Virus record (IMG/VR): IMGVR_UViG_3300020050_009955
Coordinates: 35,356-99,355 of that record
Direction: 5' to 3' (one strand)
Source of the DNA: a virus
Lineage: Duplodnaviria > Caudoviricetes
DNA: 64,000 bases
How positions within the stretch are numbered: position 1 is the first letter of the stretch; each line of letters starts with the position of its first letter. Below the pieces are notes generated by a model. It was not told the origin of the DNA. It ran no database searches and saw only the letters and a program-made list of their open reading frames with translations. The position numbers and the translations under genes are program-made. This document shows, one piece after another, positions 2,690 through 37,156 of the stretch.

Positions 2690-5600
2690 ATGATAGATAC
2701 TACACCTTTAATTCCAAATACTCCTATACCTTATTCAGGGGAGCCTAGAAAACAGTACACACCAGGACCAGAAGTTCAGAGAAATAATGAACAACTAGCA
2801 AGGCAGATACAACATCCTACCTTTGGAGATATCTATACTAGAGATGTATCAGGTACTCCCTATAAGGATTTTAAATCCTATGATACCAATATTTCACCAT
2901 ATTCCAATCAAGCTTTTTTAAGAGGTGAGAATCAGAAGTGGTATGAACAAGCAGTTAATGGTACATTAAATATGATACCGTCTACAATTCTTAAAGTGGT
3001 TGGAACAGGAGCATCATTAGCAGGAGGTTTTGGTGGTCTTTTAAGTGGTAAAGGATTTATAAAAGGGGCATCTGAAAATGCGGCATCACAAAGTCTAAGA
3101 GAGATTGAAGATTATTTTAAAAATGAAATATTACCAGTACATGGTACTAGAGCATACTTCGAAGGTAACGCAGTATCTAGATTAGGAACAACATCATGGT
3201 TGTTTAATGATTTTGCAGATGGTGTATCTTTTATGGCATCGGCATACCTTACAGGTTTAGGTATTCAAGGAATCTTAGGAAAGATGGGAAGTATCACAAA
3301 AGGATTACAACAATTTGGTTTAACGGCTGCTAGTGAAAAAAATATAGCAAGTTTTGCAGCAAAACAATTAATAAAGTTTAAAGATGCATCAGGATTAGCT
3401 ACTAAACATCTAGCTACAGGTTTTGTCAATACAGTATTTGAAGCTTCAGCTGAGGCACATGATTCAAGAGAACAGATTGAAACCTACTACAACGCTAAAA
3501 TACAAGCTGCAGAATCTTCTGGGGATACACAATTAGTAAAGCAGTTAGAGCATGAAAAAGAAATAAATGCAGATTCGGCTATGGCGTCTACATTTCTTTT
3601 CAACGCAGCATTACTAGGTTTTACTAATACGCTATTAGAAGCCAAATGGTTTTTAAATAAAGCTGAAAGTAGTAACACTGCTTTAAAGAATGAGTTACTA
3701 GCTAAGGGTGTACGTGATCAATCTGATGAAGCTTTGGAAGGATTAATTAATTCTGCTAAAGAAGGAATTAAAAAACCAAATTATTTAAGAGAGTTTGGTA
3801 AGGGTGTTTTCAATGAAGCTTATATAGAGGAGAATTATCAGGCGGCCGTTCAAAATAGATTTTTTAATAAATATTCCCAGACTCAAGATGAGAAAGATAA
3901 TAGCATCTTTAGTAATATGGGTTATGACTTAGGATCTATTATATTACAATCAGCTAAGAATGCTAAAGGTTTTACTAAAGATGTACTAGCTTTACCATTT
4001 CACGCACTAGGTTTAGATACTTCTGGCTTTGAAACTAAAACAGGAAGTGCAGAAGATGAAGCTGCTCAGGCAATGTTTGCGGCGGTTGGTATATCAGGAC
4101 CCATGGCAATGAAAGCTGCACATAGTGAGTATATTCAAGATTTAGAAGCAGTAGGAGAAGTTAGTCAAGAAGTTAAAAATTTAGTAAATATTGTTAAACT
4201 ATCAGGCGAACATTTAATAGAGAATGTTAGACAACCTCTAAGAAAATTTACTAATACGTCAGTAGATGCGGATGGAAAAGCTAACACTGAGGAAACTATT
4301 GTTAATCCTGTAACTGGAAAACATGAATTTGATCCTGTCGAATTTGCTAAGGGGAATAAGAGAGGTGCAAATGTTTTAGATAAACATAAGAAAGCAGTAC
4401 AAGCTGTAATGGCTGAAGATGAAGAAGCCTTGTCTATTATATCAGATCAAGTAACTAATGAATGGGGATATGATTTATTTAGTTTAAGTCAAGGTAGAAT
4501 AACTGATGATGAGTTACAGATTATACTGGATAATCATCCAGCTTTTCAGAATAAAGATTTGCAACAGTTAGGTTTAGATAATATAATAGCTGATAGAAAA
4601 GATACTTTAAAAAAATCTGTAGAAACTTTAAAAAAATTAAGTTCTAAGTATGAAATCATGTCAGATTTTATTCCTCAAGCAGATTTGAGTAAGTTAACTG
4701 ATGAAGAAAGAGAAATTGAAATTAATAAAAGATTCGATAAAAGCTTAGACAGATCTATACGAAATGATGTAATGCGTACAGAGTTCTTTGTTAACTATAA
4801 TAAAGATGCTGTATTAAAAGCTGATGATACTTTACAAGCTTACAAGGATGATACAGCAATAGATGAAGAGGTATTAAAAAATATGACACCTGAACAAGGT
4901 GGCAGATATTTAGATTTAATTGATTATAATCAAGCTTTAGCGGATTTAGCTAAAGGGGATAAATCAATAACTAAACAAATAATAACTAAACAACTTACTA
5001 GGTCTTCTAAATTTCAACGAGATTATTTAGATATATTAAAAAGACATAATAAAGTCTCAGAAGATTTAAAAGAAGCTAAAACTGAAAAAGAAAAAGCTGA
5101 ATTATCACAAAAAAGTAAAGAGCTCCAAGAAGAATTTGACCAAAAGAAATATCTAAAAGAAGAAGAGGAGAAAATTGAAGGTTGGGAAGCTATTACAAGT
5201 TCATTACAAGTAGGAGATTCTAAAATATCTGTGCCACACTATAGTGTATCAGATAGTATAGAAAGAAAAGTAGGTGCTAGAAGATTATATAATGGAAATC
5301 TTAAAACTTCTATTAGAGCTAATACTGCTGGTAAACTTGTAGCTAAAGATGTTTTAGATGCAAGATTAACTCCAATATTAAATGAAATAAAAACAGGTCC
5401 TATTACAGGTCAAAGACTAGCAGAGATTGTACAAGAGTTATCAGATTTAGTAACTAATGTAAGTTCTGTAAGTTTAGGTAGTCCAGTGTTACTACAAATT
5501 CTAGAAAAGTTACGTAAAGATTATTTACTTTCTGAGGAGGCTATTATTTCTGCTAATAAAGACTTAAAAAATATTATTGTAGGAGATAACGGACCAGTAG

Positions 5601-8600
5601 ATACCAGTATAGTAGGAGAGTTGGAAACCTTGATAGAACTTATAGATGGCGGGCAGGGTGAAGAAGTTGCAGGGTTTTTAGATGATGAAGATTCCCCACT
5701 ACATAATTTATTTAATTTAGTAGATAAACAAAGGAATAATAGTAATGCTTCTCCAGAATTGAAGAAGGCTATAGTAGATACATATCAGCAATTTATTATA
5801 GATACGGCTAATAAGTTTTTAGAAGGTCCTGAATTAGCAGCCATCTTAGCAACTGATTTAAATTCTAATGAGGATGTCTTTAAACGTATTGTTTCTTTTG
5901 TAGTAGACATAGATAATTCAGAATCACTTGTAAAGTTAAGAGAATTTGTATCTGAATATTTTGACAAAAATGGATCTAATAATTCGCAAGCTATTGAACA
6001 ATTAAAGCAATTAATAAATACTAAAGCACCTAAGTCTAGGATTCAAGATGATTTAAATGCAGTAAAAGAAATAAAAAGAAATCCAGATGAATTCAATATA
6101 TCTGAAGCATATAAGAGCTTAACTAGTATTGCGCAGGAACTTATACCAATCTTTGCAGAATTAACAGATATCGCATTATTATATACTGGAGACGATCGTA
6201 TAAAGGTTGCTCAAAATCACACTGTTAAAGATACTAACATAAATAACTACACGGATCTAGAAAAAGTATTTCAAGCTATATATGATTTAAAGAACGCTAA
6301 AAAAGTTTTTGAAAATCGTAAAGATATATCAGATGAGTTTAGAACTAAGATGTTAGATAAGATAAATACTCAATTAACTCTATTAAATATTATAGAAGAA
6401 AGAGTACAAGCTAATGTTTATAAATCCGATTTACAAAATCAATTATATTTAGATCATAAAACATTTGGGTTATTATCAGCATTTGGAATAATGACTAAAA
6501 ATTCTGACGTTGATCCAGAAAATGCTGTAGTTAAGCTATTTCAAGAGATATTAAAAGATACTGATATAAATGTTGTAGATGAATTAACGAGACATAGGGA
6601 TTCAAAATCTCTATCTGCATTAATGGGTTTCATATCTCTAGCACAAACTAAAGCTAATCCTGAGCAGATAAAAGAAATTAATACCTTGTTGGATAATTTT
6701 GCTGAGGGGTTACAATTAGAGATTTTAAGTAAACATGCAAACTTGTTTAGAGGTAAGGAATCTGTACCTGGAACCTTTGCAGAATTTGCTAAAAATCCTT
6801 CAAAGAAAGCAAGATCATTTTTCTTACATACTTTCTTTATGTTTGATGGTAGGAAGATTAAAGATAATAAAGTTCAAGAAGATAAGCTTAATGCATATAA
6901 ACAAGATCCTAAATCTGGATTTTTTCAAATTACAGAACACAATAATTTTTTAGAGGCGTTAAAGATAGCTAATGAAGATGTTAAGAGAGGATTAATATCT
7001 GAAGTAGAATATGATAATTTAAAAATATTTGTAAATCAAATTTTAAGACCACTTCAAGGTATTGAAGCTCTAAAAAATAATTTAAATTCTAAATATTCTT
7101 ACGCAACACTTCAAGAAGAAGTATTTAAAATTTCTGGACAAAAGAACTTAAACTTATCACAGCAACAGTTTGCAGCTATGATGGATAGTTTATTATTTTT
7201 ATTGTCAGATAATAACTCTAATGTAGATCAATTAGGATACGCTGCAGTATTATCTGGAGTTTTAGGATCTGGAAAATCTACATTAGTTGGATTACTTACT
7301 AATATCCATGCAAAACTTACAGGAAAAGATAGTGTTAAACATGTATTAGGTACTGCACACGTTGATGTAGCATCAGAAAATATAAACAAACATATTGATT
7401 CAACTTCTACACAGAATAAAACAGTTGGGCAATTAACATCTGACGACTTAAAGGATACTGAAATCCTAGTTGTTGATGAAGCTTTTGCAATGTCAAATGA
7501 TCAAATAGACTCATTACATTTATTGATAAAAGAGATTAATGCTCTTAGAACTTCAAATAAAATAAAGGTATTATTTGTAGGAGATATGTCCCAAAATCGC
7601 TTAGACCAGGATCATATTTTAGCAAGTGATACATTTACAAGAGATAATGGAGTTATAAAATCTGCACAAGCACTTACTATAATATCACCCCTAGCTACTA
7701 TTTATAGAACATCTATTGATGCGATAGCGTCTACTCTATTTAAATTTAAGGATTCTATTGAAGATATTGCAGCAGTAGATACAAAATCTACAATAACTTC
7801 TTTACAGGAGTATACGAATCAAGCATTGGGTATTGTTCAAGTAAATTCTGAAGCTTTACCTCAATTTTTAGCAGCTAGAGATACTACAAGATCTGCATTA
7901 GTTATTGTAAATTCTTCTGAAGAAGTTGGAAAATTTATAGCTAGCCTTACTCAGTTTACACAAAAGTCTTTGAAAGAATTAAATATAGAAGTAAAATCAT
8001 ATTATGATGTTCAAAGTTTAACTAGAGATGAGGCATATATCCTATTAGATAAAACAAAACCAGGGCATCACGGCCAAATGTTTACTAATAAAACATTTAA
8101 TAGCGCTATGTATACTTCTATTGGTAGAGCTAAACAATTTGTAGGAATATCTGGAAATAGCGTTATAGTTAATTCAGAGAAACAAGAATTAGATGATGCA
8201 ATATCTATAGGAGAAATTATTAAGCAGAAACTAAAAGATGCTACAACTAATTTCGAAAATGGATTCATCTACGCAATGGGTAAATATTTTGATAAAGCAG
8301 TAACTAAAAACACCACTAAAGAAAAAGAAGCTGAAAAAACTGAAGAGACTGATGTTGTACCTATTGATATAGATAAAGATGATAAAGAAGATTTAGATGA
8401 AGATAATAACCCTATTCCGGATCAACCTGAGGATGAAGATTATACAAATCCTGATGGAACATCTAATGATATTATAACAGAGATAGGGTCTAAGACAGAT
8501 TCTTCATTGTCTGCAAGATTGAACAATACTAATAATGCAGCTATAAAACGTGTATTAAAAGGGCGGACATCAACAGATGGTGTCGATGCTATAGTTGTTA

Positions 8601-11600
8601 AAAGAGAAAAAGTTTTACCCACAGGTGGAACACAAATAATGTATTCTATAATGGTTCCAGATATATCTGGTAACTATCATGAAGTTGCTGTATTAGATAC
8701 AGAAGAACTTAATGGAACGTTTGTGTCATTAATTAATGATAATATACCAGTATTAGATGTCTTTAGAGAAGGTTTGAGGGAATCAGATTTAGCTCCACAT
8801 CAAGTAGGGAGATTTAAGCTCTCTTATTTATCCAATGGAAAATATGATAATACTGGAGAGGAGAAAAATACAAATTTATCAGATCTAGTAATTCAATGGG
8901 CTAAAGGTTTTTATGGAGATAATTGGAAAGACTCTCCTCTATTTAATAAAGACGGATCAATCGACTGGTCGAAGTTCCAAACATCTGTAATAACTAGAAA
9001 ATTGTATGATCAACTAAAACTATCTGAAAGAGGATTCTCTGCAGGAATTTTAGGGGCTACTATATTGAGAATAAAAGAGTATAATCCTAAAGCTCCAAAA
9101 TCCTTAGATCAATTTATTATATTAAACACACAACAAGCACATTTATCAAAAGGGTGGTACAATAAGACAGTTGCACCAATTCAAAAATTCTATGCAGCTA
9201 CAAAAGCTGTAGAAGATATCCTAGTGGCAGAACCTTTTGTTACAGCAAATGTTAATGATTATAATTTATATTTAGGGGATTCTAAATTAAGATTTAATAC
9301 AGATCTATTAGACGCCTTTGCTAGAGAAGCCTACACTTATGGTGATGTCGCATTACGAAAAAATTCATTAGAAATTCTTAGAAATATATTAAGTGGAGAT
9401 GCTTTGAAATTTAATATGAAAAACATTTCGGATGAACAACTTTTAAAATTGCAGGATGCTTTGCATGAATTAGTAGGCTTAGCTTATATTAAAAAATCTA
9501 AGCAGCTAGTAATTCCAAACACACCAGAAGCTATCAAAGAATTAGAAGATACTTATGGAAAAGGGTATACATTTGATTTAACTACCCACCCTACTCACAA
9601 TAAAAAGCCAAATACTAAATTCATTATAGTAAAGGTTTTGAATGAAAATAATGAACCTATTAAATTTTTAGTACAGAGCCATAGCTTAGGGAATTCTGAA
9701 GTACAAAAAGCTTTTAAAAATTTCTCAAGAAATGCAGGGGATAGAAAATTTAAGGGTCATACATTAAATGTAACACATACATATACAAAAGAAGGGCGTA
9801 ACGGGTTAGAAGTTGAAAAAGTATCTTCACCTAAAACTTTAGTATCTCTACGAAGAGGTTCTAAAAATGGTAAGACAGGTCAAAGTTCTATAGGTTGGTA
9901 TGGATTAATGAAAGCTAGATTTAGATGGATGATATCAGAACATCCAAATGGTACTAGATATGCTGAAAATGTACAAGATAAACAAGCTCTTTCTACATTA
10001 AGAAAAGAATTTAATAGGATTATTGATACTGAATTTAATGGGAAGGGTAAATATATAGGAGGTAATGACGAACTAATAGAAAGATTGTCTAGAGATTTTC
10101 CAGAAGAAATGAATCACGTTTTGGATTCATTATATGATGAATCTACAGTTCCTGTAACTTCTACTCTACTTCAAGCGATATCTGAAATTGCTGAAAATAC
10201 TCCAATATATTTAGATCCTCAACAAAAAGTTAATCCAGATGGTTCAGTAAGTGAAGGAGAACCTACGCCTCTTAGAATTAATATGGATGCAGGTATAGGT
10301 AGTAGGGTGATGACTGATAGTAAAACTAGAGATTTCGTAGAATCAGCCACTACGAATCGCTTCATTAACTACACTCCAGGGGGTGTTGAACTAGAACTAA
10401 AAGAAAAGCCTAATGATGGTGAAACTTTAAAATCAGCTTCATTAAAAAGAGTAAATGCTAACATAAATAATGAAGAAGCTGTATATAAAAAAGTTTCATA
10501 TAATCCAAATGTAGACACTATTGTGGAACAGCATATAAAAGTTATTGCTGATATGGTTAAAGATCACTTAGGATCTATTAACTTTTTTGTCGACGAGAAA
10601 CAAGGTGATGTTCTTGGAGGTGTTACTTACTTTAGAGATATAGATAATAATCCAGTTGTTTTATTTGGTAAAGAAACTATAGGCCTATCTTTATTCTATC
10701 ATGAAGTAATCCATGCTCTTACTCAACAAGTAATATTAAAAGATGATAAGGACTGTACAGAAAAAGAATTATTATTCAAGAAAAGAATATCCAATATCTT
10801 TAATTTATTTAAAGATAATTTAAAGGATTATTCTGATTTAAGTATAGAAGATATTTTAGGAAGTACTTGGTCAGATTTAGATGAACACGAATTTATTGCA
10901 AACTTAACTAATACGAAATTAGTTGAGATTTTACAACAGATGAAGGTTCAAGATATTAAATCTAAGAATCTATTTCAAGCAATACTAGATGCTATTTTAA
11001 ATTTATTTGGTTTAACAGAAAAAGATAATCCAGATTTATATGAATTAACTCTTAAATCTCTTTCAGACTTAATTACTAAGGATGCTGCAAATAGTGGTCC
11101 AGATGTAATAATAGCACCTGTACCAATTGATGTGATACCATTACCTTCTGAAAAGAAGCCATGGAAAGCGCGAACTAAACAAGAAACAGAAATTTCAAAT
11201 TTAGAATATAAAATTAGAGCTTTAGATATTGCTGATGATTCAGCAACTAAAGAAATAGAAAGATTAGAAGAAGCTAATAAACAACTTGAAGGAATAATTC
11301 CTGAAATACAAGAAGCTTTAGACAATGTTAAAAAGAAATTAAAAGAGAAAAAAGAATCTAAAACCCCTGTAGTTGGCGAGCAAAATCAATCACCAATAAC
11401 AGTACAACCTGATGAACAATTTCTATCAAATGTTGTAGAAAGTCAAGTAAGTATAGATGATATTGAAAATATAGCTGACGAGGAAGATATTGATGAAAGT
11501 GAAGTAGTAGATAGAATTAAACAAGAAGTACGTAACAGTATTGATAATCTTATACCTGCAAAACCTTTAGGTAAAACATTACAGAGAATCATAACTAAGA

Positions 11601-14600
11601 TACTGAACTCGTTATTCTCCTTTGCATTAGTAGTAACTACAATGTTCGGTAATTTACCCGGACTCAACGCGTATGATTATAGAGATAAAGTAATAACTAC
11701 TGAATCTATAAGTTCTCAATTTATAGAAAGTAAAATTAAAAATTCTGAAGTATATCAACAATTAACGGAAGATGGTAAAATTATATTAATTAACCAAGCT
11801 AAATTAAAAAGTGATAAACCATTTATTCTTGTAGATAAACCAACAGCTACTGCATATATCTTTAATAAAGATGGTGTATTACAGAAATCATTTCCTGTAG
11901 TATTAGGAGCAGCCATAGGCGATTCTGCAAATCAAGCAGACGTTAATTCTACTAGACCTGGAAAATACGCAACAACTCCCGCAGGTAGATATAATTTAAA
12001 ATATGGCGGAGGTAGTGAAGAAGACTATATTAATTATCACAACAAAGCGTATTACCTAACGGATAGTAAGACTGGTAAACTTGCAAAAAATGGAGTATCA
12101 CTACATATTGTTTATCAAGGAGAATTAGAGAAAAGAACAAAGGCTCTTAATACGCCAACTCCAAACGATAATAGATTATCTTGGGGTTGTGTAAATGTTG
12201 ATGAAAAAATTTGGGATGAATCTATAGCACCTATAGTGGATAGTGGTTTAGATGTCATAATTACTAGAGATTTTCAAACAACTCCTTTCTTATCATTTTC
12301 TAATGATACTTCTACAACAAATCGGATAGACGGAAGAGTAGCAAATATTATATCTGACTTGGAATTGAATAAAGCAAGTCTAGATTATGAATACTCAGAA
12401 AGAGCTCTTGAAACCTTATTAGACAGAGCTCGAAAAGTTATGACTGATAACAGAGATATTATTAAAAAATATCAAGATAAAATTAATAGTAATGCGAAAG
12501 AAAGAACATCATTACTAAAAGAATTAAAAAAATTAAAGAAAAATTTAGAACCGCAAGTAGAGGAGCCAAAACAGACCCCTAAACAAAGAGTTGATTCTTT
12601 TTCTCTAAAGGCTAGGAAATATATTAGTGAACATGGATGGTCCATGGAACCTTCCGAATTAATTAGATTTAATGAATTTTTAGAGAAAGTTGAAAAGTTT
12701 AAAGTTCCAGGAATGGCTGTTAAATACATTGAAAAAGTATTACCTACTTTTAATACTACAAACAAGTTATTCCATTTAAACTTCTCAACAACTTTAGGAG
12801 CTGATTCCCAAAGCACCTCTCCAGATAGTACTTTCTTAAAAGTTGCTAATCAAGGACTTATGTCTCTAACTAAAGAATTTGGTGGATCTGTAGCTCTTTT
12901 AAATGAAGCATTATTCCAAACTAGAAAGTCTGTTTATGAGGCTATGAATGGTAATACCTTAACAGGATTAGCAGATCCTATTAGTTTTCAAAAAGCTAAA
13001 GGTATAGCTTATAAGAATTTGTCTGAAGATGCAGGAAATATGGTTCAACAGTTTCTAATTACATTAGAAAACTCTGGACCTCTTATTAATTCATTAAATA
13101 TAGATTCTATACAAAAAGCTGTAAGAGTATTTGAAGAGAAAAGACAAGCACTATCTTTACTAGATGAGGGTACAGATTTATATAATGACACTGAAACTAT
13201 TGTTGAAACTTTAAATAATATTATTCTTCAATATAGAACACCTATTTTAGCTTTAGAGAAGATGGCTAATGATAAGAGTATATTTTTTAAATTATTAAAT
13301 CAAGTATTTAATAATTGGACAGTCTTTGAATTGACTCCTGAAGATGAGCAAACTGAAAAAGATCAAGCAAACTTAGCCAATGAAATTCAAAATAACGAAG
13401 AAGTTAACATAATAGAATCATTCTCTACAGAAGTTAAAAATTTCTTATCTCTAATACCTATAAGAGATGAAAATGATAGGATAGTTAGTTTTGTTATGCC
13501 TAAAACTGCAATAACATTCTTGGCAGAATTATTACACGATGATATAGATTTATATAGTGTAGAATCTACAAGACAACTAAGAGTATCTTTAGTTACCATG
13601 CAAAGAAATGGAATTATAGATAAATCTAAAAAAGCAATTTTAGATAAACTTATACAGACTATTGAGAGATTTAACCTATCTCAAAATGAAGTTGTAACAA
13701 GAGATAAACAAGGCAGGGAAACAGGTAGAAAGATAGAAAATATTTTACCTAAAACTACTACAATATTTATAGACTACTTTGGTGATCATTTAGATGCAAT
13801 TAATATTCCAGTATATCTTATTCAAGCTGTAGATCCAGCAGATTCTTTAGATCTTACAGGAATGAGTCATAAAGAAGCTGTATATGAGTATGGTGATAGA
13901 GTTACTGTAACTAAGTATGCAGATATGGAAACTTTATTAAAAGCAAATCCTGAGGCTAATCAAGATTTACTAAAAAAGATGTATTATATTCATCAAGCAT
14001 ATAATGATTTAACAAATATTAAAGTATACTTAGGTAGCTTAATGAATGTAAATTATATTCAAGGTTCTGAAGATTCTTACTCCACGGGTTATGGTGAGGA
14101 AAGAATTCTAGATAGAAAAAGTTCATTAACTAGAGTTAGTGGTTCTAATATTTTAAATAAAAGTAAAAATCAATTAGCTAATCTATTAATAGATATCTTC
14201 TCAGGTTCTGCTTTTAGAATGAATGGTAAGGTAGTAACTGTAAATAAGAGTAATGTTAGGGACGTATTTTCAGGATTAATAAATAAATTATCAACTGATC
14301 CACAAAGTGGTGTTTTAGAATTACTGAAAATATTAAATAGTGCTAATCTTTTAAATTTTGATGATAGTGTAAAATCAACAATAGCTTACAATGAGTTAAT
14401 TAAAAATATTGCTACATCATTTGTAGAATTATATAATAAAGTTTTAGATGATAAAGAAGTTTTAAATAGAATCTTCGAGTTAAATAATTCAGAAGATAAA
14501 CTAAATGAAACACAAATAGATCAACGTAGAGAACTTAATGCTTTATTTTATAGAGATGTAAAGTTTGATGCACTTGCTGTAAGTTTTAGACAATTAGCTA

Positions 14601-17600
14601 AAGCTCATGTGGAAGTTAGAGGTTTTAATTCTATTAAAACTGTAGATGGAAAACGTTTAGCATCGTTTATTCCTACTTCTACCTTTAGAGAAGTATTGAA
14701 AGATTATAGAAGATATAAAGAAGGAAAAACTTCTAGATTTTTGAATTCAGAATTTTTTGGAGAAAACATATTTTTAAATGGCGTAAACTCTATTAAAGAT
14801 ACTACAACACGTTTCTATGCTTTAGAAAGTGGGAGATATATTTATAATGCTACTGGGCTATCAGCAGCTAAAAAAGTTAGTATAGCTTTTAATGACGCTT
14901 TTATTTCATCTATAGCAAATACTGATGTTTATTTCCAAATGATATACCAACAAGGAGAAGCTACTAAACCAGAAATGCCACAAGTATCATTCCTTAAATA
15001 TGAAGGAATAGAAAAAGCTTTAGACTCTATGTTAAAACAACTTTTGGTTTTGGATACAGATCAAGTTGCTCAGAAAAAATATCAGAAAGAACATAGGCTG
15101 AATTTCTCGTTATATGAAAATGCTAAAAAGGATTTAGGTAAAGAAGATTCTTCTTTAAGTGATGCTAATTATAGAAAACAATTAGTAGATCATATGATTA
15201 AGCAATTATTTTCTAGAGCTCAAGAAATGAGAAAAGGTCTAAAGTCATCTCAGATTCCATTAACAGGAAATCTAAGAAAAGCATACACTAAGGTAAAAGC
15301 TTCTTATGTTGATAGTAGAAGTAATACAGCATTAGCTTCAGTATTAGATTTTACACAATTGGCGGAAAATTTGGATGACTACTATCCGCATAGTACTAGC
15401 TTTAAAGATAGAATCTACCCCGATGATAATGAATTAGACTTAATTTTATTTAGTTTTGTAGCTAATAATTATGTTAACTCTTTTGGTTTAAGTCAATTAG
15501 CTTATGGGGATTTTAATATGTATGGAGATATTGAAACTCTAGTTAAGAGAGCTCAGATGAGTGCATCTCCTGGATATCTTCCATTAATACATTCAAAATA
15601 TGGTGTAGAGAGGTATGCTAATATCTTAATGGGTACGGATGTCGAAACACCTGGTTCTGAGTATATGAAATTATTAGGAAATTTTAATTTATCTGCAAGG
15701 GAAATAGAAGAAATTAGAGATCAATTACGTGATGGAGATAAATTCGATTCTATAGAGAGAACAGATGGTGTAGTATTTGTGACTCCAAGATACTTTGCAA
15801 AATTACAAAAATCTTTTGGATCTGGATTGAACTTAAGGAATGTAATGAAAGACCAAGCTTTTGGCTGGTCTGAAGAAATTATCGCAGATAAAGAACATTA
15901 CTTTGCAACTAAAGAGGAATTATATAAATATCTTAAAGAGACAAAGGGTTTAGAGAAACCTATTCAAAATACACACTATATAGAAGAACTTGCTGAAGGA
16001 TATAAAGATGTTATATCTGGCTATTATCCAACAAAAGTTAAGATGCAACCAGTTGGATTAAAGAATGCTATGGTTGTTCTAGATGAGGCATTTATTCAGC
16101 AGAATAGTGCAAGTAGAGAACAATTAACTAAGCTTAAAAAATTATTAGATACTGCAGAAGTCAATGGTAAAAACATAGATATGCTAGTATTTAAATCATC
16201 TAATAAAGTAGGAGCAGAATCTACTCATAATATATTTGATAATGATGGAAAATTAATAGAAAATTCTGAGCAAAATATCGAAGATTCTATCATTAAGTTG
16301 GATATGTCTTTGTTTAAAATCCAATACAATCCGCATTCAGAAGATACTACAACAGCAGTACCTAGACAATTATTACATTTTGCTAATACTATTGTAGATT
16401 CACCTAATAGTCCCGAAGCGCAAGAGTTGTATTCAACTTTAGCATCTATACAAAATCTTTCTTATTTAAATAAATTTGGTTCTTATGATTTAGATATGTC
16501 TACTATACGTGGAATGTTTGAATCTACAGTGCAAAAAGGAGATGAGAATTTTGTTATCCTTTCTGGTATAAGTGCTGGGTTACCATTAGATCACCCATCT
16601 TTAGCAGTTAAGGCTATATCATCTTTAGGATCTACTTTAAACTCTATAGCTTCTAGAATTAGAGTGCCTGGAGGGAAATTGATACTAAGATCAGATATAG
16701 GTTATGAATTAAAGGATGGAAAAACAAAAAGAAAATTAACTATAGGGACTAGTGAACTAGGAACTCCTTATGCAGAAGCTGTTATTCCTGCACATTTCTT
16801 AACATCTGCGCAAAAAGACGCTATAGCTTCAGGTAAACCTTTATTTATAATACCAGAGATGTTTGGATTTAGAATACCTTCTGGAGATATGAATGCAGGA
16901 TTAATGATAAAGGTTGTTGATTTCTATGAAACTGAAGGTAGATCTAATATTGCAATACTTCCAGATTTAGAAATCTTTAAACAAGGTTGGGATTTTGATG
17001 TGGATGCTCTATTTTTACTAAACTTTGCAGAGCTAGATAAAGATTATTCTATAGGAAAATTAAATCTCACCAAAGGTTCTCTACCTGGATTTGAATTATC
17101 TAAAGATGGTAAATCTGTTTATAATATTCTAAATGGTGACAGCTTCGAAGAATTTGAAAAAGACTTAATAGCTGAAGTTAAAAGTGCTAATAATAGAATA
17201 GATAGTATAGAAAATAAATTACAAAGCTTTAAAACAGCAGAATCTAAAGAATCTTTAGAATATAAAGAATTAAGTAGTAATCTTAGACGTGAAAAGAAAG
17301 CAATAAAAGATTTAAATAAAATTAGAATTACTGCTCTAAAAAACAGATTTGTAAGAGGATTCTTTATGCTATATAATAATCCTAAAAATGCTGGTAGGAT
17401 ATTAGATGTTACTACAACAAAAGTTATTGACAATGCTATAGCTATGTTACGTAAAGACGGTCTATACGACGAAACTCCAAGTATGGATCTATCATTCCTA
17501 GAAGACAATATAGCTCAGTATTTAAATGTAAATGAAGCATCTAAAGCCATAGGTATCTATGCTAAGGGTTCTAGTGTAAATGCATACATAGGACACGCAG

Positions 17601-20600
17601 GTCAATTGGGCACTAACAATAGACCACAAATTGGTGAGGAGATGCAGTTCACTATGAATGGTGTTTTAGTAGATAGGATTGATCCTGTAACATATGCATT
17701 TGGTAAGAAGACTTCTGCTTATACTTTAAATAATAAACTTCTAAATGCATTCTTAGATGCATTAAAAAATCCAAAGATTTTTACAATAGGTTTTAATGGA
17801 GCTAATGCTAATTTAGTAGATTCGGCTCTATCTGTAGGTGGATTGAATTTTGAAGATGTAGTATTGATGTTTAATCACCCTTTAATAAAAGAAGCCTTTA
17901 AGAAAAGATCTTTCAATGATTTAATGAAAGAGGTTGAAAAATCAGTTGTAGACGCTGAAGGTAAGTATAAAGAAAGTTTCTTAAAATTAGCAGTTACAAC
18001 TAATGATTTAAAAGAAGCATATAAAATACATAAAGCAAATTTACTTTCAGAAGTAGCTATAGCTAAAGATGATACTGCAGATGCTACTTTTAAACAGAGT
18101 GATGATGATGCTTTACAAACTTCAGAACAAATACCATCATCTGAAGAAACTACATCAGAAGGATTCAAGCAAGAAGATAATTTAGGACTTGATACAGATG
18201 ATGCACTAACAAAGATGTTACAAGTATTGCTAAAAATACATAAGATATCAGGTCAAAAATTCAAATACATAGCATTAATTAATAATGCACAAGACAAACC
18301 TTCTTCACTTTCTGATATATTTAAATGGGAAACAGACATTAAGAAATTATTTAATGAAGAATTTTTAGAAGATTTAGTAAGCAAAGCAGCAATCTTAGAT
18401 TCTAAGAAAACTGTAGATGATTTATATAAAAATTTAAAAAGTTTAATAGGTGACCTTAGAGAAAAGAATTCTAAGAAAACTATTTTGGCTCCAGATGTAC
18501 AATTTGATACTGAAAAGATCTTAGAAAAAACCCCTCATTTAATTGTATCTCTAATGCAAACGTTGATTCATATAGAAAATTTAAAAAAGAATTTTGCTAT
18601 TCTTTCTCCAAATGCATTAGCTGTTGCAGGTTCATTCTTACCTACTTTAGATGCCCAGAGAGCTGATTCTAATTCCGCAAAAATGTTATCTGTATATACA
18701 TTATCAGACATGCTAATATCTAGTTTTGTTTCTGATTTAATTAATACAAGAGGAGCTACTATTAGTAAATATAATTCTAAAGAATCTGAATTAAGCAGAA
18801 GATCTTATGAGGGTATTGCAGCATTTAACCATAAATTTGCGCAGAAAATAAAAGCTGTTGAAGAATTAGAATCTAAATTACAGTTAAAGAATAAATACTT
18901 TAGAAAAAATATATTCCTAGAACATATTCTCGTAAATATTGGTAATCTAATTCAAGTAAAAGCTTCTGAAGCATATTCTATAGCAAATTTTGAAAGTGTT
19001 GATTATTTCACAGCATTTAATAATCTATCTAGATATGCATTTGAAGAAGTGTTAGATGAGAATGGAAACTTTGTTGGATATTCAGCTTATGAAGATTTTG
19101 CACAAACTGAATCTTCTTTACAGCAAGATTTTGTAACATATGCCACATTTAAATATGGACTTAGAGCTGCAGGAAATAATTACATAGGGGCTATAGCTCC
19201 TGAATACTTAGCTAAATATACTAAGTTTATAAATAGGATGTATAAAATTTGGTTAACACGTAATCCAGATGTATCTAATCTTAAAGATCTATTTAAAATA
19301 TATGCAGGATTAAAATATTTCAAATCAGTTCCTACTGTAGCTAAGTACACAAAAGATGATACTGGTAATTACGAAACAACTCTTAGAGATAATAAAGATG
19401 GAGTATTCACTACAGCTTTAAAGAACGAGCTAAGAAAAGAATTTGGTAGAGATTTTTATTTTGACCATGCAATTATGTATGATTCTAAAAATGCTACACC
19501 TGATCTCTTTCTAAGACTCAATGATGAGAAGAATATTCAGAAGCAAAAATTTTTAGTGCGAGTAGCTGTACTAAAAGAAGGTGGACAAAAGGCTGTTGCA
19601 TTATATCAAAAGATATCTCATGGTGAAACTTTACTAACACAAAGACCTTATAAAATAGCAGATCACTTTTTAACAGATAAGCCAACTATGAAATTTATAC
19701 CTAGTGTTGGGTATTTCATACATGATGAAACTGTTTTGGATTCTGAAGGAAATCAAGTAGCAAATGAGTTCTCTGTACCTTATAATAAAGAAACACATAA
19801 AGATCATAACTTAGCCCCACAGATTTATGGTACTTATTATGATGATGTTTTAAGACATAATTTATCTCTATTGGAATTAGTTAATTACGAGACTTATAAG
19901 GAAGATAATGTATTAAAATTTAGGGTTGTTCAATCAGATATAGGGTATAGGAATTTTGATGAGAGTACAAATAGGTACACTGATTCTAAGCAAACACAAG
20001 ATGAAATAAATCAAAAGGATGTTAAACTTAGAAGACAATATTTTGCTATGCAAAAAGCTCCTATTGATTATTTTGATATATCAAAAGGATCTAGATATTT
20101 TGGACCTAATAATGTATTAGTACATATGACTAATGAGGTAAATATACCTCTTAACAAACAAGCTAAATTAGCACATTTCTCTAACAGAGATGGTAAACTT
20201 TCTGGAAAGAGGAAGAAATTGTCACAAATGGATTATTCTGAAATAGGAACAACTAATAAGTTAGTAACAGGCAAGAAAGGATTTGGTTTCCCTCTTGTTG
20301 TTAATCAAACAAACGATTCTAAGAATCCTACCAAAGAGTTTAATGCTTCAAAATCTACAATAGTTAAAAGTTTAAGACTACTATTTACTGAAGCAAAAAA
20401 TAATCCTGATAAGATTTTCCAAATGGTATTTAATGATGTAGCAGATGGATCTAAATTGACTCTAGCTGAGTTTGCTTCTTATATTGTAAATGCAAAAGTT
20501 CCAATACCTTCTAACATATTCATGAATCCTAAGCTATATAATGAAGTAAAAAGATTATCTGATATACAAAGAGAAGATAAATTAGTAACCCCTAAAGAGA

Positions 20601-35329: not shown

Positions 35330-37156
35330 CTAATATTCGAGTATTCTCGAATGTTTAAAGTTATCTACCATCATCAGGATTTGCGATGAGGAGAATCTAG
35401 ATTTTAATATGTGCCAATATATCATGGCTTGTTGTGGATCTTTAGGATTAAAAACAGGTAATCCATAAACATATTCTGATCCTCGTGGTGGCCCATAATA
35501 GACACCTATTCCTTCTATTACTGCCGGTTTATGAGTGACAATAACGTAGTCCGAACAATAGTAGGCAGCACTAGATGCGAATAGGTCATTCTTATTAGGA
35601 TACTGTAACATAGGATTTGTAATTCTTTCCGATTTTTCAATATCTCGGTTGAGCTGGGATAATACTATAAAGATACACTTTAAATTGATAGTCTCAAAAT
35701 ATTTTTTTAATTGTATTAGAGTCTTATAAAGTTTATCTATTATTTGTTTCTCAGCATCTTCATTAACAGCTCCTTTAACAAGCAAACTATGGTCGAAAGT
35801 ACATACAAAACCTTTTCCTTTGGAAGCTAGTTGATTTTCTTGTACAAAGTTTAAAATCGTACTGACTATCTCTTCCACAGTGCCTACATCATCTACGATG
35901 TATATAGGATAATATTTCATTTTGTCCGCCTCTGTGCTTATTTTGGTGTACTGTGCATCTGTTAATTTAGATCCCGCAGAATACAATTCTTTTGTAGACA
36001 ATTCAACCTTAGACGATATGTCTCTAGCTACTTGATCTACACCTAGCATTTCCATCTCGAAAGATAAGATATCAAATTCCTGATCCTTGTTATAGTCCAC
36101 TATATCACGTTTGATCTGAGAGAGCATTAAGCTCTTTCCTGAGTTATGTACTACGATTCCATTAGCAATAAAATTATTGTAAGGAGCATTACACATAATA
36201 TCATATGTTTCTTCTACTCCACACGATTCAATTGATATAATTTTATCGTATTCAATAGTATACATATTATTCCTTAGTATTAAATGCTCTAGAGCATGTT
36301 CTTTCTTTGAAAGCAACTCTAAGTTATCAATAGAATTATTAGAAGTATTTCCATCTTTATGGTGAATTTCCATAGAACTATCTGAAAATATAAGATTTGA
36401 AGGATTATTAATACATTCTATTAGAAAGTCCTTTATATTTGTAAAACCGTTTAAATAGGCATCATACACAGCACGTTGTTCTAAACATTCTGCATAAACA
36501 TTATTATTTATAATTTTTAATCGAGCATTCGGATAATTAAAAAACTTTCCTGTAATACTTTTTCTATAATGACTCTTTTTAGGTTTTATTTTACTTTTGA
36601 ATCTAGATACTAAAAGATCTCCAATATGTAAATCAGATAGTGATTTATAGTGTTCTTCTGATTTATTTCCTATATGTGTTAAAAATTTATGATCTTTAGT
36701 AGCCTTTATTTTTTTACCAGATTCTGTAGTAATTTCAAATACTTCCTTCTTTCCGCTAAAAATAACAGCATTAATTTGTGTTTTCCCAATTGTATTTAAA
36801 TCTTCTTTATAACATTTGATATAAGATGGAATTTTTTTATTCCATTTACCATTTCCAGTAAATAAAAGATTATATTTTTCATATAATTCTTTTATCGTAT
36901 ACTTTCTAGAACTACTTCTTTTTCCTCTATTAACTTCAATAATAGTATCTGCAGATAGACATCCTGATAATCCGGCAATGGTTATAATTCTATTCCACTC
37001 CAAGCCTTCAAATAGGGCATCATTTAGTTTTTTAAACGAAGTTTTTAAAGAGGGTGCTTCACCCTTCATTCTTTTCTTTATAAATACTTTAGCATCATCT
37101 ATTTTTTTAGAATAATGAGCCACTGGTAAACTCGGCTTAAATGAATTCTTTTCCAT
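35330..37156 (-). CDS. dnaB: DnaB-like replicative helicase with an intein
   Basis: IAGLSG|SGKS Walker A after intein removal, SFEM, DH, SQLNR, DL..S and ILKSR motifs. Confidence 0.9.
   Translation of the reverse strand: MEKNSFKPSLPVAHYSKKIDDAKVFIKKRMKGEAPSLKTSFKKLNDALFEGLEWNRIITIAGLSGCLSADTIIEVNRGKRSSSRKYTIKELYEKYNLLFTGNGKWNKKIPSYIKCYKEDLNTIGKTQINAVIFSGKKEVFEITTESGKKIKATKDHKFLTHIGNKSEEHYKSLSDLHIGDLLVSRFKSKIKPKKSHYRKSITGKFFNYPNARLKIINNNVYAECLEQRAVYDAYLNGFTNIKDFLIECINNPSNLIFSDSSMEIHHKDGNTSNNSIDNLELLSKKEHALEHLILRNNMYTIEYDKIISIESCGVEETYDIMCNAPYNNFIANGIVVHNSGKSLMLSQIKRDIVDYNKDQEFDILSFEMEMLGVDQVARDISSKVELSTKELYSAGSKLTDAQYTKISTEADKMKYYPIYIVDDVGTVEEIVSTILNFVQENQLASKGKGFVCTFDHSLLVKGAVNEDAEKQIIDKLYKTLIQLKKYFETINLKCIFIVLSQLNRDIEKSERITNPMLQYPNKNDLFASSAAYYCSDYVIVTHKPAVIEGIGVYYGPPRGSEYVYGLPVFNPKDPQQAMIYWHILKSRFSSSQILMMVDNFKHSRILEY
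36143..36961 (-). mobile_element. Intein (273 aa) with an HNH endonuclease, inserted in the DnaB P-loop
   Basis: Starts CLSADT, has block B ATKDHKF, ends YDI...NFIANGIVVHN and is followed by Ser. Internal EIHHKDGNTSNNSIDNLELL..EH. Confidence 0.93.

Follow-up and report, generated by a model that had tools for sequence, protein, structure and literature searches.

The closest described counterparts of the locus reported here are homologous proteins of the crass phages phi14:2 and crAss001, which are reported to be packed in the virion and translocated, to be fused in some phages and to undergo probable cleavage (10.1101/2020.03.07.982082; PMC10172136). Crass phages with the three cargo proteins joined in a single polyprotein were described earlier, and the possible wall-digesting activity discussed in these papers is that of the zincin domain only (10.1101/2020.03.07.982082; PMC10172136). 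The crAss001 cargo protein gp45 has a predicted transmembrane helix and is packed nonetheless (PMC10172136). Zincin-type processing was proposed for polyvalent proteins (Iyer et al. 2017, PMC5512222), and the survey of these proteins lists lysozyme, SpoIID, DD-peptidase and zeta kinase, with YkuD absent (PMC5512222). YkuD-type domains, the Pfam family found here, are rare in phage lytic proteins, with 10 entries in PhaLP (PMC8310338).

The giant protein analysed here resembles the crAss001 and phi14:2 systems in its crass capsid and muzzle, in the DFDxD motif of its RNAP region, in an HExxH motif N-terminal of RNAP and in the placement of its gene past the muzzle and cargo genes. Its 6,320 aa are close to the 694 kDa summed for gp47, gp49 and gp50. 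Unlike the described members of this type, it contains a YkuD domain. Further afield, T7 gp16 has a lytic transglycosylase domain, and T5 Pb2 combines a coiled coil, membrane-active segments and a metallopeptidase. The giant protein is similar to these and to polyvalent proteins in carrying a putative wall-directed domain within a large multi-domain protein that is, or in the present case would be, ejected, near helical and hydrophobic segments. Its fold is a Cys/His YkuD, in contrast to their lysozyme, transglycosylase, M23 or DD-peptidase.

Genome context and domain content

The window is the whole 64,000-nucleotide stretch of DNA that was analysed, and all features given below lie on its + strand. 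The source phage is crAss-like, uncultured and from wastewater. The ORF at 2690..21652 encodes 6,320 aa and was identified as a fused Crassvirales cargo/RNAP polyprotein through its translation, crass genome markers and giant homologues. Crass_capsid (PF23898, 2.5e-76) and crAss_MUZ (PF25731, 1.2e-45) are encoded upstream of the ORF, and the nearest TerL is that of phi14:2 (32% identity). Homologous giants (n = 20) range from 3,980 to 6,833 aa. By sequence, the protein is the counterpart of crAss001 gp47, gp49 and gp50, or of phi14:2 gp65, gp66 and gp67, in fused form.

The Pfam search and motif scan showed an SF1 helicase-like P-loop domain (AAA_30/Viral_helicase1) at aa 1519-1636 (7244..7597), with Walker A at aa 1523; the same families are annotated (precomputed) in most of the related giants. 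The RNAP catalytic region (16049..17020), located by tblastn and pairwise alignment, terminates at a DFDVD metal-binding motif (aa 4768-4772, 16991-17005). It matched the 'putative RNAP catalytic subunit' of Rudgehvirus jaberico by tblastn (E 5e-6), and pairwise alignment (E 1e-12) placed GWDFDVDALF opposite GSDFDIDSVY. Together with the crass capsid and muzzle in the genome, this alignment bears out the placement, in a preliminary description of this DNA, of the YkuD domain within an RNA polymerase polyprotein. This one ORF combines YkuD and RNAP with the helicase-like P-loop domain and an HExxH motif, as is characteristic of polyvalent proteins.

The HExxH motif is a zincin-type HEVIH sequence found by motif scan at aa 2671-2675 (10700..10714), and six relatives (P0153-P0158) have HExxH at the matching position (aa 2660-2696). 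The region aligned weakly with a ZnMc-annotated Rudgehvirus protein (E 0.097) and had no match in the Pfam search of the giant protein; the zincin assignment is made at the motif level. A C-terminal module with GPSHAQGG (aa 5988-6320; 20651..21649), delimited by BLASTP, shares 96.7% identity with the C-terminal end of P0154, against 35-40% over the remainder of the two proteins. The family search gave no match for this module.

The YkuD domain

The YkuD (L,D-transpeptidase fold) catalytic domain comprises aa 3044-3191 (11819..12262) and was supported by Pfam, AF2, Foldseek and VIA-align. The Pfam YkuD profile PF03734 matched aa 3044-3174 with 34.2 bits (E 4.6e-8, profile positions 2-131 of 146), above its gathering cut-off of 23.4 bits. 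The peptides from which the domain had been proposed, FILVDKPTATAYIF, FPVVLG, TPAGRY, SLH and RLSWGCVNV, are in frame in the ORF, and the codons of the two putative catalytic residues, His3139 (12104..12106) and Cys3167 in SWGCVNV (12188..12190), are where they had been placed. The proposed His/Cys signature of L,D-transpeptidases was likewise upheld: in an alignment of 81 relatives, which takes in classical YkuD members of 200-300 aa, H, C, G, R and N are invariant (columns H180, C208 and N210 for the His, the Cys and the Asn). Both His and Cys are kept in all nine phage-type cassettes, and Cys3167 is one of just three cysteines in 6,320 aa.

The AF2 model of the YkuD piece had a pLDDT of 88.5 and a pTM of 0.79. 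Foldseek against the PDB gave a probability of 1.0 to at least 45 YkuD-fold entries, including Pgp2, Csd6, YkuD, LdtMt1/2 and DpaA. VIA-align found 81 chains at Z of at least 8, and all 50 entries listed have the YkuD fold; the Z scores were 11.4 for Csd6, 10.9 for Pgp2, 10.9 for YkuD and 10.5 for LdtMt2 (rmsd 2.4-2.9 Å over 110-116 residues). The core of the model superposes on residues 251-381 of LdtMt2 at 2.4-2.9 Å. The model thus has a YkuD fold, and the Foldseek and VIA-align matches are solely to YkuD-fold enzymes.

Compared with the solved enzymes Csd6 (4xzz), Pgp2 (6xj7), B. subtilis YkuD (1y7m), LdtMt2 (e.g. 4gsq), Ldtfm and DpaA (8ikr), the domain is alike in structure (Z 10-11.4, 110-163 residues aligned, 2.4-4.4 Å) and in its His...S-x-G-C-[IV]-N motif. 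LdtMt2 likewise has Asn, not Arg, two residues past the Cys. Identity to the solved enzymes is just 12-22%. Searches of PDB chains by sequence returned no match, so the tie to the solved enzymes comes from the Pfam profile and the fold comparison. The domain also differs from them in its longer His-Cys spacing, with an extra helix bearing an invariant Arg, and in sitting behind an internal anchor in a phage polyprotein rather than behind an N-terminal signal. The spacing is 28 residues, while that of textbook L,D-transpeptidases is about 16-18; with the longer spacing and the extra helix, substrate and chemistry could differ. From the sequence and the model, this is a genuine and probably active domain of the YkuD fold, either an L,D-peptidase or a transpeptidase.

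Cassette architecture

BLASTP block boundaries place the domain in an inserted cassette with outer bounds of aa 2850-3354 (11237..12751) and a minimal extent of aa 2883-3351. Composition windows identified a helical, coiled-coil-like flank upstream (aa 2831-2885; 11180..11344), where Pfam gave a weak THOC7 coiled-coil match at aa 2826-2889, and a second such flank downstream, followed by a Lys/Pro-rich linker (aa 3215-3285; 12332..12544). Both flanks (aa ~2831-2885 and ~3215-3285) are without Pro or Gly, about 49% charged and helix-like. Two flanking coiled coils had been claimed; the helix-like composition holds, and a coiled coil as such is plausible. Before the helix described next, phage-type cassettes carry a conserved acidic motif, IENIADEEDI...EVVDRIKQEV (11438..11548), as defined by the nine-cassette alignment.

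Hydropathy scans and AF2 defined a basic stretch and hydrophobic helix at aa 2962-2987 (11573..11650), a putative membrane anchor, for which AF2 predicts helical structure (residues 3-28 in the numbering of the model). Within it, ILNSLFSFALVVTTMFG is the sole 19-residue window of the giant protein with a mean Kyte-Doolittle value above 1.5 and also tops the 15-residue scan; the hydrophobic segment described before YkuD is, in effect, the most hydrophobic stretch of the protein. A helical linker at aa 3009-3039 (11714..11806; AF2 H50-80) joins the anchor to the catalytic domain. The giant protein has no N-terminal signal. The internal basic and hydrophobic helix, about 200 aa N-terminal of Cys3167, is conserved in relatives.

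Insertion and distribution

The five closest giants are collinear with the protein on both sides of the cassette. In BLASTP the first aligned block stops at aa ~2796-2882 and the next starts at aa ~3352-3376, and between these blocks the five giants have just 0-85 residues of their own. Phmmer with the cassette gave no match at E ≤ 10 among 19 related giants, and in the tree the cassette-bearing protein is nested within a cassette-less clade. As the closest giants are collinear yet cassette-less, and the protein is nested among them, the cassette represents a gain of about 470-505 aa. It interrupts the linker that joins the zincin-motif part (gp47/gp65-like) to the RNAP part (gp49/gp66-like). 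The suggestion of an inserted cassette was thus confirmed, and its distribution is patchy. Homologous cassettes are present in more distant crass giants. What is new here is the insertion event among the closest giants and the make-up of the cassette.

In the more distant giants, some cassettes terminate the ORF and some precede a second hydrophobic helix. The ORF ends directly past YkuD in P0005 and P0089. In P0007 it ends 110 aa past YkuD and is followed by an ORF of 2,803 aa, on a contig that also has crAss_MUZ. P0004 has a second hydrophobic segment and then KKKK just C-terminal of YkuD, and P0011 has a weaker such segment; in these two, YkuD would be an outward-facing loop. A further crass contig encodes a YkuD protein between the muzzle and cargo-2 genes. 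Across this divergent phage clade, identity is 33-50% and the catalytic residues are kept. The sister giant P0153 carries LysM and Amidase_2 at its C-terminus in place of YkuD, and P0157 carries PG_binding_1; most related giants are without any detectable wall enzyme.

Tblastn with the cassette gave no match among 50,697 phage records. BFVD contained large uncultured-phage proteins with a matching module, such as a 'Large polyvalent protein associated domain' protein (E 5e-13), and an 'L,D-TPase catalytic domain-containing protein [Podoviridae sp.]' likewise matched the YkuD module. The YkuD proteins of PhaLP and BFVD have automatic annotation only, and the literature search found no link between them and crass RNAP polyproteins.

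The best cellular matches were membrane-anchored YkuD proteins of 400-660 aa from CPR/Patescibacteria (Minisyncoccia, Paceibacterota and Saccharibacteria MAGs), with 36-45% identity and E values down to 1e-38. They share with the giant protein a unit made up of the basic-plus-hydrophobic helix, a linker of some 120 aa and YkuD, whose motif reads SWGCIN in the CPR proteins. They differ in being chromosomal, in a conserved locus (LysM-M23, large unknown gene, YkuD, large unknown gene, UvrD, KsgA), and in their short N-terminal coiled coil; beyond the YkuD unit, nothing is common to them and the phage giant. In most relatives, phage and cellular, the helix lies 180-236 aa N-terminal of the Cys, and this fixed spacing argues for the helix and YkuD cassette behaving as a functional unit.

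Proposed function

We assign a rough probability of 0.55 to the reading that the cassette-borne YkuD is a wall-editing enzyme delivered by the virion via an internal anchor in a cleaved polyprotein. Judged from its sequence, the domain probably has the wall of the infected host as its target. By homology with phi14:2 and crAss001, we infer that the polyprotein would be packed in the capsid and would later leave via the tail, ahead of the DNA or together with it. The hydrophobic helix would enter the host cytoplasmic membrane and leave the refolded YkuD on the wall side, in an N-in/C-out topology matching that of the cellular relatives. The Cys/His site could then attack an L,D bond of peptidoglycan stem peptides, which would loosen or remodel the wall locally, at the entry conduit. 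As the protein has a single hydrophobic helix, its N- and C-terminal parts would lie on opposite sides of the membrane unless cleaved and, since no second hydrophobic helix follows YkuD, the RNAP part would have to be proteolytically released to reach the cytoplasm. Proteolysis may take place near aa ~3280-3350, where related phages have a gene boundary. The wall-to-outer-membrane links mentioned in the preliminary description may not apply, given that the best cellular matches come from CPR bacteria.

The same enzyme could work in the synthetic direction, as an L,D-transpeptidase that forms 3-3 cross-links or tethers the conduit or polyprotein to stem peptides, with the entry channel fixed to the wall or the wall resealed post-entry. 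Most enzymes with its fold and motif act as transpeptidases (LdtMt2, Ldtfm, YcbB), and its nearest cellular relatives are membrane-anchored and encoded in a conserved chromosomal locus adjoining a LysM-M23 peptidase gene, a context that suggests housekeeping wall enzymes, not lysins. However, L,D-carboxypeptidases (Csd6, Pgp2) lead the structural matches, at scores tied with transpeptidases, the alternative module in the sister giant P0153 is a hydrolase, and we know of no described phage precedent for a tethering role. We consider the synthetic role rather unlikely; hydrolysis, as an L,D-carboxypeptidase or endopeptidase, appears somewhat more likely than cross-link synthesis.

It is improbable that the domain acts late, with newly made polyprotein inserting via an internal signal-anchor so that YkuD reaches the wall from inside and weakens or remodels it pre-lysis, or excludes superinfecting phages. 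Inserting so large a cargo protein (6,320 aa) into the membrane would compete with its packaging, and the cassette is linked to cargo genes in several phages. In favour of a late role, the helix, preceded by basic residues, resembles a signal anchor. A few lytic proteins of phages do contain YkuD domains (PMC8310338, PMC13284279), and an endolysin match was also found.

There is similarly little likelihood that the cassette is a tolerated passenger, a captured cellular module that a permissive linker accommodates and that either plays no part in infection or has a non-peptidoglycan substrate. The absence of the cassette from 19 of 19 related giants, and its position in a linker that measures 0-85 residues in relatives, would fit such a history. 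Against it, catalytic residues are kept across the phage clade despite its divergence, strain variation is mostly synonymous, composition fully matches the rest of the genome (GC 31% for the cassette, 30% for the gene and 32.5% for the genome), and wall-directed modules recur among sister giants.

An assembly artefact of the fusion, conceivable for a window taken from a metagenome-type virus record, or a chance motif is highly improbable, since independent contigs from other studies cross the junctions without indels and the Pfam, fold and family evidence agree. A 20-kb activated-sludge contig covers 10500-13500 with 11 substitutions and 0 indels, and in an 892-bp contig of a different study, which also spans the cassette, most changes are synonymous. 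These independent assemblies support the fusion of the cassette to the polyprotein.

The Giant Protein and Its Genome

The window comprised the final 64 kb of a virus record that consists of one contig of 99,355 bp, and its plus-strand ORF 2690-21652 was shown by ORF listing and translation to encode a giant protein of 6,320 residues. Genes for a crassvirus major capsid protein (PF23898, 2.5e-76), a muzzle protein of the crassvirus type (PF25731, 1.2e-45), a P22-like portal protein and a large terminase lie upstream of the window; the nearest relative of the terminase was that of Cellulophaga phage phi14:2 (32% identity, E 3e-85). Residues 4454-4777 of the giant aligned with the 'putative RNAP catalytic subunit' of Rudgehvirus jaberico (Crassvirales; tblastn E 5e-6, pairwise E 1e-12), the alignment ending with GWDFDVDALF opposite GSDFDIDSVY. 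The homology of the capsid and muzzle genes and the RNAP alignment with its DFDxD motif support the preliminary description, in which a YkuD domain was embedded in a putative virion RNA polymerase polyprotein. An SF1 helicase-like P-loop domain (AAA_30/Viral_helicase1; aa 1519-1636, window 7244-7597, plus strand) is present in the N-terminal third and is common to most of 20 related giants. The position of an HEVIH motif at aa 2671 is kept in six relatives, and the alignment of this region with a ZnMc-annotated crass protein was suggestive only (E 0.097). Searches of PHROGs and NCBIfam were uninformative throughout the giant.

In phi14:2, the DFDxD protein gp66 is an RNAP that is packed in the virion and translocated to the host; gp65 (zincin-like) and gp67, which are encoded next to it, are likewise found in virions, and in some phages the equivalents of all three form one fused polyprotein that is probably cleaved (10.1101/2020.03.07.982082). 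The virions of crAss001 contain gp47, gp49 and gp50, of 262.5, 154.5 and 276.9 kDa (PMC10172136); their sum of 694 kDa is close to the mass of the 6,320 residues of the giant. By homology with these cargo proteins, we infer that the giant would be packaged into the virion.

Identity and Predicted Fold of the YkuD Domain

The peptides quoted in the preliminary description were all in frame within the ORF, and the codons for His (12104, aa 3139) and Cys (12188, aa 3167) started where it had placed them. The two residues are 28 residues apart, and the catalytic cysteine is one of three cysteines in the whole protein. At 34.2 bits, the match of Pfam YkuD (PF03734) to aa 3044-3174 exceeded the curated cut-off of 23.4. 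With aa 3021-3204 as the query, 1.84 billion representative proteins yielded 603 matches at E<=1e-3, six of them at E<=1e-30. In an alignment of 81 of the 603, which takes in classical 200-300-aa YkuD proteins with N-terminal signals, a glycine, H3139, R3149, C3167 and N3169 were invariant.

The single-sequence AlphaFold2 model was poor (pLDDT 48), and the model based on the 81-sequence alignment, which was confident (pLDDT 88.5, pTM 0.79), was used instead. The predicted structure had the expected YkuD fold, as judged by Foldseek and VIA-align. The Foldseek matches listed against the PDB were only YkuD-fold enzymes (probability ~1.0) and included Pgp2, Csd6, B. subtilis YkuD, Bd1075, LdtMt1, DpaA, LdtMt2 and YcbB. 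VIA-align gave Z 10-11.4 for the modelled domain against solved YkuD-fold enzymes, with residues 251-381 of LdtMt2 superposing at 2.4-2.9 Å over 110-116 residues (~21% identity). An extra helix between His and Cys is predicted to carry the invariant Arg. Among PDB chains, no YkuD match was obtained by phmmer or hmmsearch, even with profiles; the search with the profile from one alignment (A2) was dominated by coiled-coil noise.

Anatomy and Insertion of the Cassette

On the plus strand, the cassette begins with a Pro/Gly-free, highly charged helical flank (aa ~2831-2885; composition windows), followed by the acidic motif IENIADEEDI...EVVDRIKQEV, conserved in the phage cassette alignment. Basic residues then precede a hydrophobic helix (aa 2962-2987; hydropathy scans, AlphaFold2), which is joined by a helical linker (AlphaFold2) to the YkuD domain (aa 3044-3191; Pfam, AlphaFold2). 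A second charged helical stretch (aa ~3215-3285) and a Lys/Pro-rich linker follow, both from composition windows. In a Kyte-Doolittle scan of all 6,320 residues with 19-residue windows, only the hydrophobic helix scored above 1.5. Where two flanking coiled coils had been described, the two flanks were Pro/Gly-free, charged and helix-like in composition, and coiled coils are plausible there.

The RNAP region (aa 4400-4900) retrieved 20 giants of 3,980-6,833 aa, and PF03734 was present in ours only (1 of 20), a patchy occurrence. The five closest homologues (P0153-P0157), 41-48% identical to the giant in that region, are collinear with it over aa ~20-2850 and ~3355-6320 and have 0-85 residues at the cassette site, versus about 470-505 in the giant. 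In P0156, the alignment runs to giant aa 2882 at its own residue 2883 and restarts at giant aa 3359 from the same residue 2883. A phmmer search with aa 2850-3355 found nothing at E<=10 in any of the 19 relatives. The suspicion that the domain lies in an inserted cassette was thus borne out by collinearity on both sides in cassette-free giants and by the empty phmmer search. The RNAP-region tree placed the giant as sister to P0153 and P0154 (SH-aLRT 99) within a six-member clade (SH-aLRT 100), with outgroups also lacking the cassette; as the giant is nested among cassette-less relatives, one gain on its branch is the simplest history.

The GC content of the cassette (31.5%) left no compositional trace of transfer relative to the gene (30.3%) and the genome (32.5%), and its best identity to any other copy was ~50%. 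A recent transfer was rejected on both grounds, and the gain is, as judged from these comparisons, not recent. There were no direct or inverted repeats at the cassette boundaries. An intein or homing-element origin was likewise rejected, since no such motifs were present and the catalytic residues are conserved.

Window 10500-13500 was present in wastewater, activated-sludge and digester metagenomes of several studies, with no RNA dataset among the sequencing runs listed for it. A 20-kb contig of one study covers this interval with 11 substitutions and no indels, and an 892-bp contig of another covers the entire helix-plus-YkuD part. The strain differences were mostly synonymous; the sole replacement in the YkuD domain was P3044S, and a change adjoining the Cys codon was silent.

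Cassette Copies in Other Phages

In the YkuD-domain tree, the module of the giant and six other proteins (1,691-4,838 aa) formed a clade (SH-aLRT 98). The six have only the cassette in common with the giant (aa ~2860-3200; 25-42% identity, mostly 33-42%), apart from a weak DFDxD-region match in one of them, P0004. They are found in crass-like phage settings. P0004 is encoded on a contig of 106 kb, and the gene for P0007 (1,930 aa), which has YkuD near its C-terminus, comes after a crAss_MUZ gene and before an ORF of 2,803 aa. P0005 and P0089 end about 25-30 residues past YkuD. In P0004, a second hydrophobic segment and then KKKK immediately follow YkuD, and P0011 has a weaker second segment followed by KKRK, a layout that would make YkuD an outward loop between two helices. 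The giant has no second hydrophobic helix after YkuD. Several other giants carry an HExxH motif 150-230 residues past the YkuD Cys.

A crass-like IMG/VR contig encoding ring protein 1, muzzle and cargo protein 2 (locus L024) encodes a 1,242-aa protein (8264-11992) between the muzzle and cargo-2 genes. It carries a more distantly related YkuD domain (SWGCINV), shows no obvious hydrophobic helix and marks a second place for the fold within the crass cargo genes. After the cargo-2 gene comes an ORF that resembles the N-terminus of the giant (aa 95-387).

When the cassette was searched by tblastn against 50,697 deposited phage genomes, nothing matched, so the studied crassviruses lack it. In IMG/VR, no relative came up with the single protein as query, and two viral contigs came up with another alignment (A3). 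BFVD contained uncultured-phage giants with a matching module under automatic names only.

Cellular Relatives

Outside the giants, the best matches were proteins of 400-660 aa (36-45% identity, E values as low as 1e-38) that share the unit of helix, ~120-residue linker and YkuD; those that could be placed came from MAGs named Minisyncoccia, Paceibacterota and Saccharibacteria. In Patescibacteria, the gene for the membrane-anchored YkuD protein has a conserved chromosomal setting (L004, L006, L007): on one side are a divergent LysM-M23 peptidase gene and a gene for an unknown protein of 770-980 aa, and on the other are genes for an unknown protein of 880-1,300 aa, UvrD and KsgA. In one Saccharibacteria MAG (L010), a single ORF of 1,808 aa comprises both YkuD and the unknown protein upstream of it. 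These CPR loci have nothing in common with the phage giant besides the helix-linker-YkuD unit. The phage clade was nested, with weak support, among the CPR-type relatives in the YkuD-domain tree, which makes capture of the cassette from a cellular enzyme of CPR type plausible.

Other Wall Modules and a Probable Module Exchange

The sister giant P0153 has LysM and Amidase_2 at its extreme C-terminus (about the last 700 aa), as read from its sequence, and Pfam identified PG_binding_1 in another, P0157. The C-terminal 333 residues of our giant (aa 5988-6320; window 20651-21649), which include a GPSHAQGG motif, share 96.7% identity with the C-terminus of P0154, a protein encoded on a 103.7-kb contig that bears the label Candidatus Dependentiae; outside this module the two giants are 35-40% identical. 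The difference points to a recent exchange of the module. At another locus (L003), the region of the GPSHAQGG-like motif is the end of a separate ORF. No family was assigned to aa 5988-6320, for which a protein-atlas search gave weak unnamed clusters only.

Proposed Role of the Cassette

Wall enzymes inside ejected phage proteins are a known principle, as in T7 gp16 and T5 Pb2. Polyvalent proteins are a further example, and their survey lists lysozyme, SpoIID, DD-peptidase and zeta-kinase domains, but not YkuD (PMC5512222). YkuD is rare among the catalytic domains of phage lytic proteins, with 10 PhaLP entries (PMC8310338), and no paper was found in the literature tying it to crass-like RNAP polyproteins. 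The structural and RNAP papers on crassviruses leave aside how the wall is crossed, apart from the suggestion that a zincin domain might digest peptidoglycan (10.1101/2020.03.07.982082; PMC10172136); the crAss001 structural paper does not mention peptidoglycan (PMC10172136). The conserved YkuD cassette with its putative anchor, and likewise the other wall modules of the sister giants, are concrete, testable candidates for this step.

In the most coherent model, the cargo polyprotein would be extruded and the hydrophobic helix would enter the cytoplasmic membrane, leaving the N-terminal part inside; on the wall side, YkuD would refold and attack L,D bonds of stem peptides, and the RNAP part would be split off by proteolysis. 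Separation near aa ~3280-3350 is implied by the gene boundaries in related phages and by the lack of a second helix in the giant. As to the reaction, the structural match lists (Foldseek, VIA-align) were topped by L,D-carboxypeptidases, with scores tied with those of transpeptidases, and a tethering or resealing transpeptidase was considered alongside bond cleavage. A role late in infection was also considered, in place of one during delivery. The cassette could, lastly, be a neutral passenger; we argue instead for a wall-directed job tied to cargo delivery, because divergent phage copies keep the catalytic residues, the cassette behaves as one unit together with its putative anchor, and sister giants carry wall modules.

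A more far-reaching reading is that environmental crassviruses may carry interchangeable wall-enzyme modules in ejected RNAP polyproteins (YkuD here, LysM and Amidase_2 in a sister), the YkuD version being a self-anchoring cassette that would have been captured from membrane-bound L,D-transpeptidases of CPR-type bacteria, would have been passed horizontally between distantly related giant genes and, after ejection, would face outward in the host membrane and edit wall L,D bonds. As one joint claim, this is tentative, and we give it roughly one chance in three (about 0.35). If true, it would bring to phage entry, as a new catalytic class of entry enzyme, the L,D-transpeptidase fold that is familiar from wall synthesis, cell shaping and carbapenem biology, and could be a clue to some crass-like phages infecting hosts outside Bacteroidota. 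The finding also shows clean swapping of whole functional cassettes as a mode of giant cargo gene evolution.

Other Features of the Genome

A full-length GroEL-type chaperonin (phrog_5725, E 3.9e-142) is encoded directly upstream of the terminase gene (2889-4508 of L001, the sequence upstream of the window; genome 2889-4508). It was 43% identical to Sphingomonas GroEL and 35% to that of a Muribaculaceae MAG, values that are uninformative on the host, and it found no GroEL match in the three CPR MAGs searched. Within the window, a DnaB-like replicative helicase ORF (35330-37156, minus strand) contains an HNH endonuclease-like stretch (~aa 258-300) before the helicase core, which may be a homing-type element that was inserted there or the remains of an intein.
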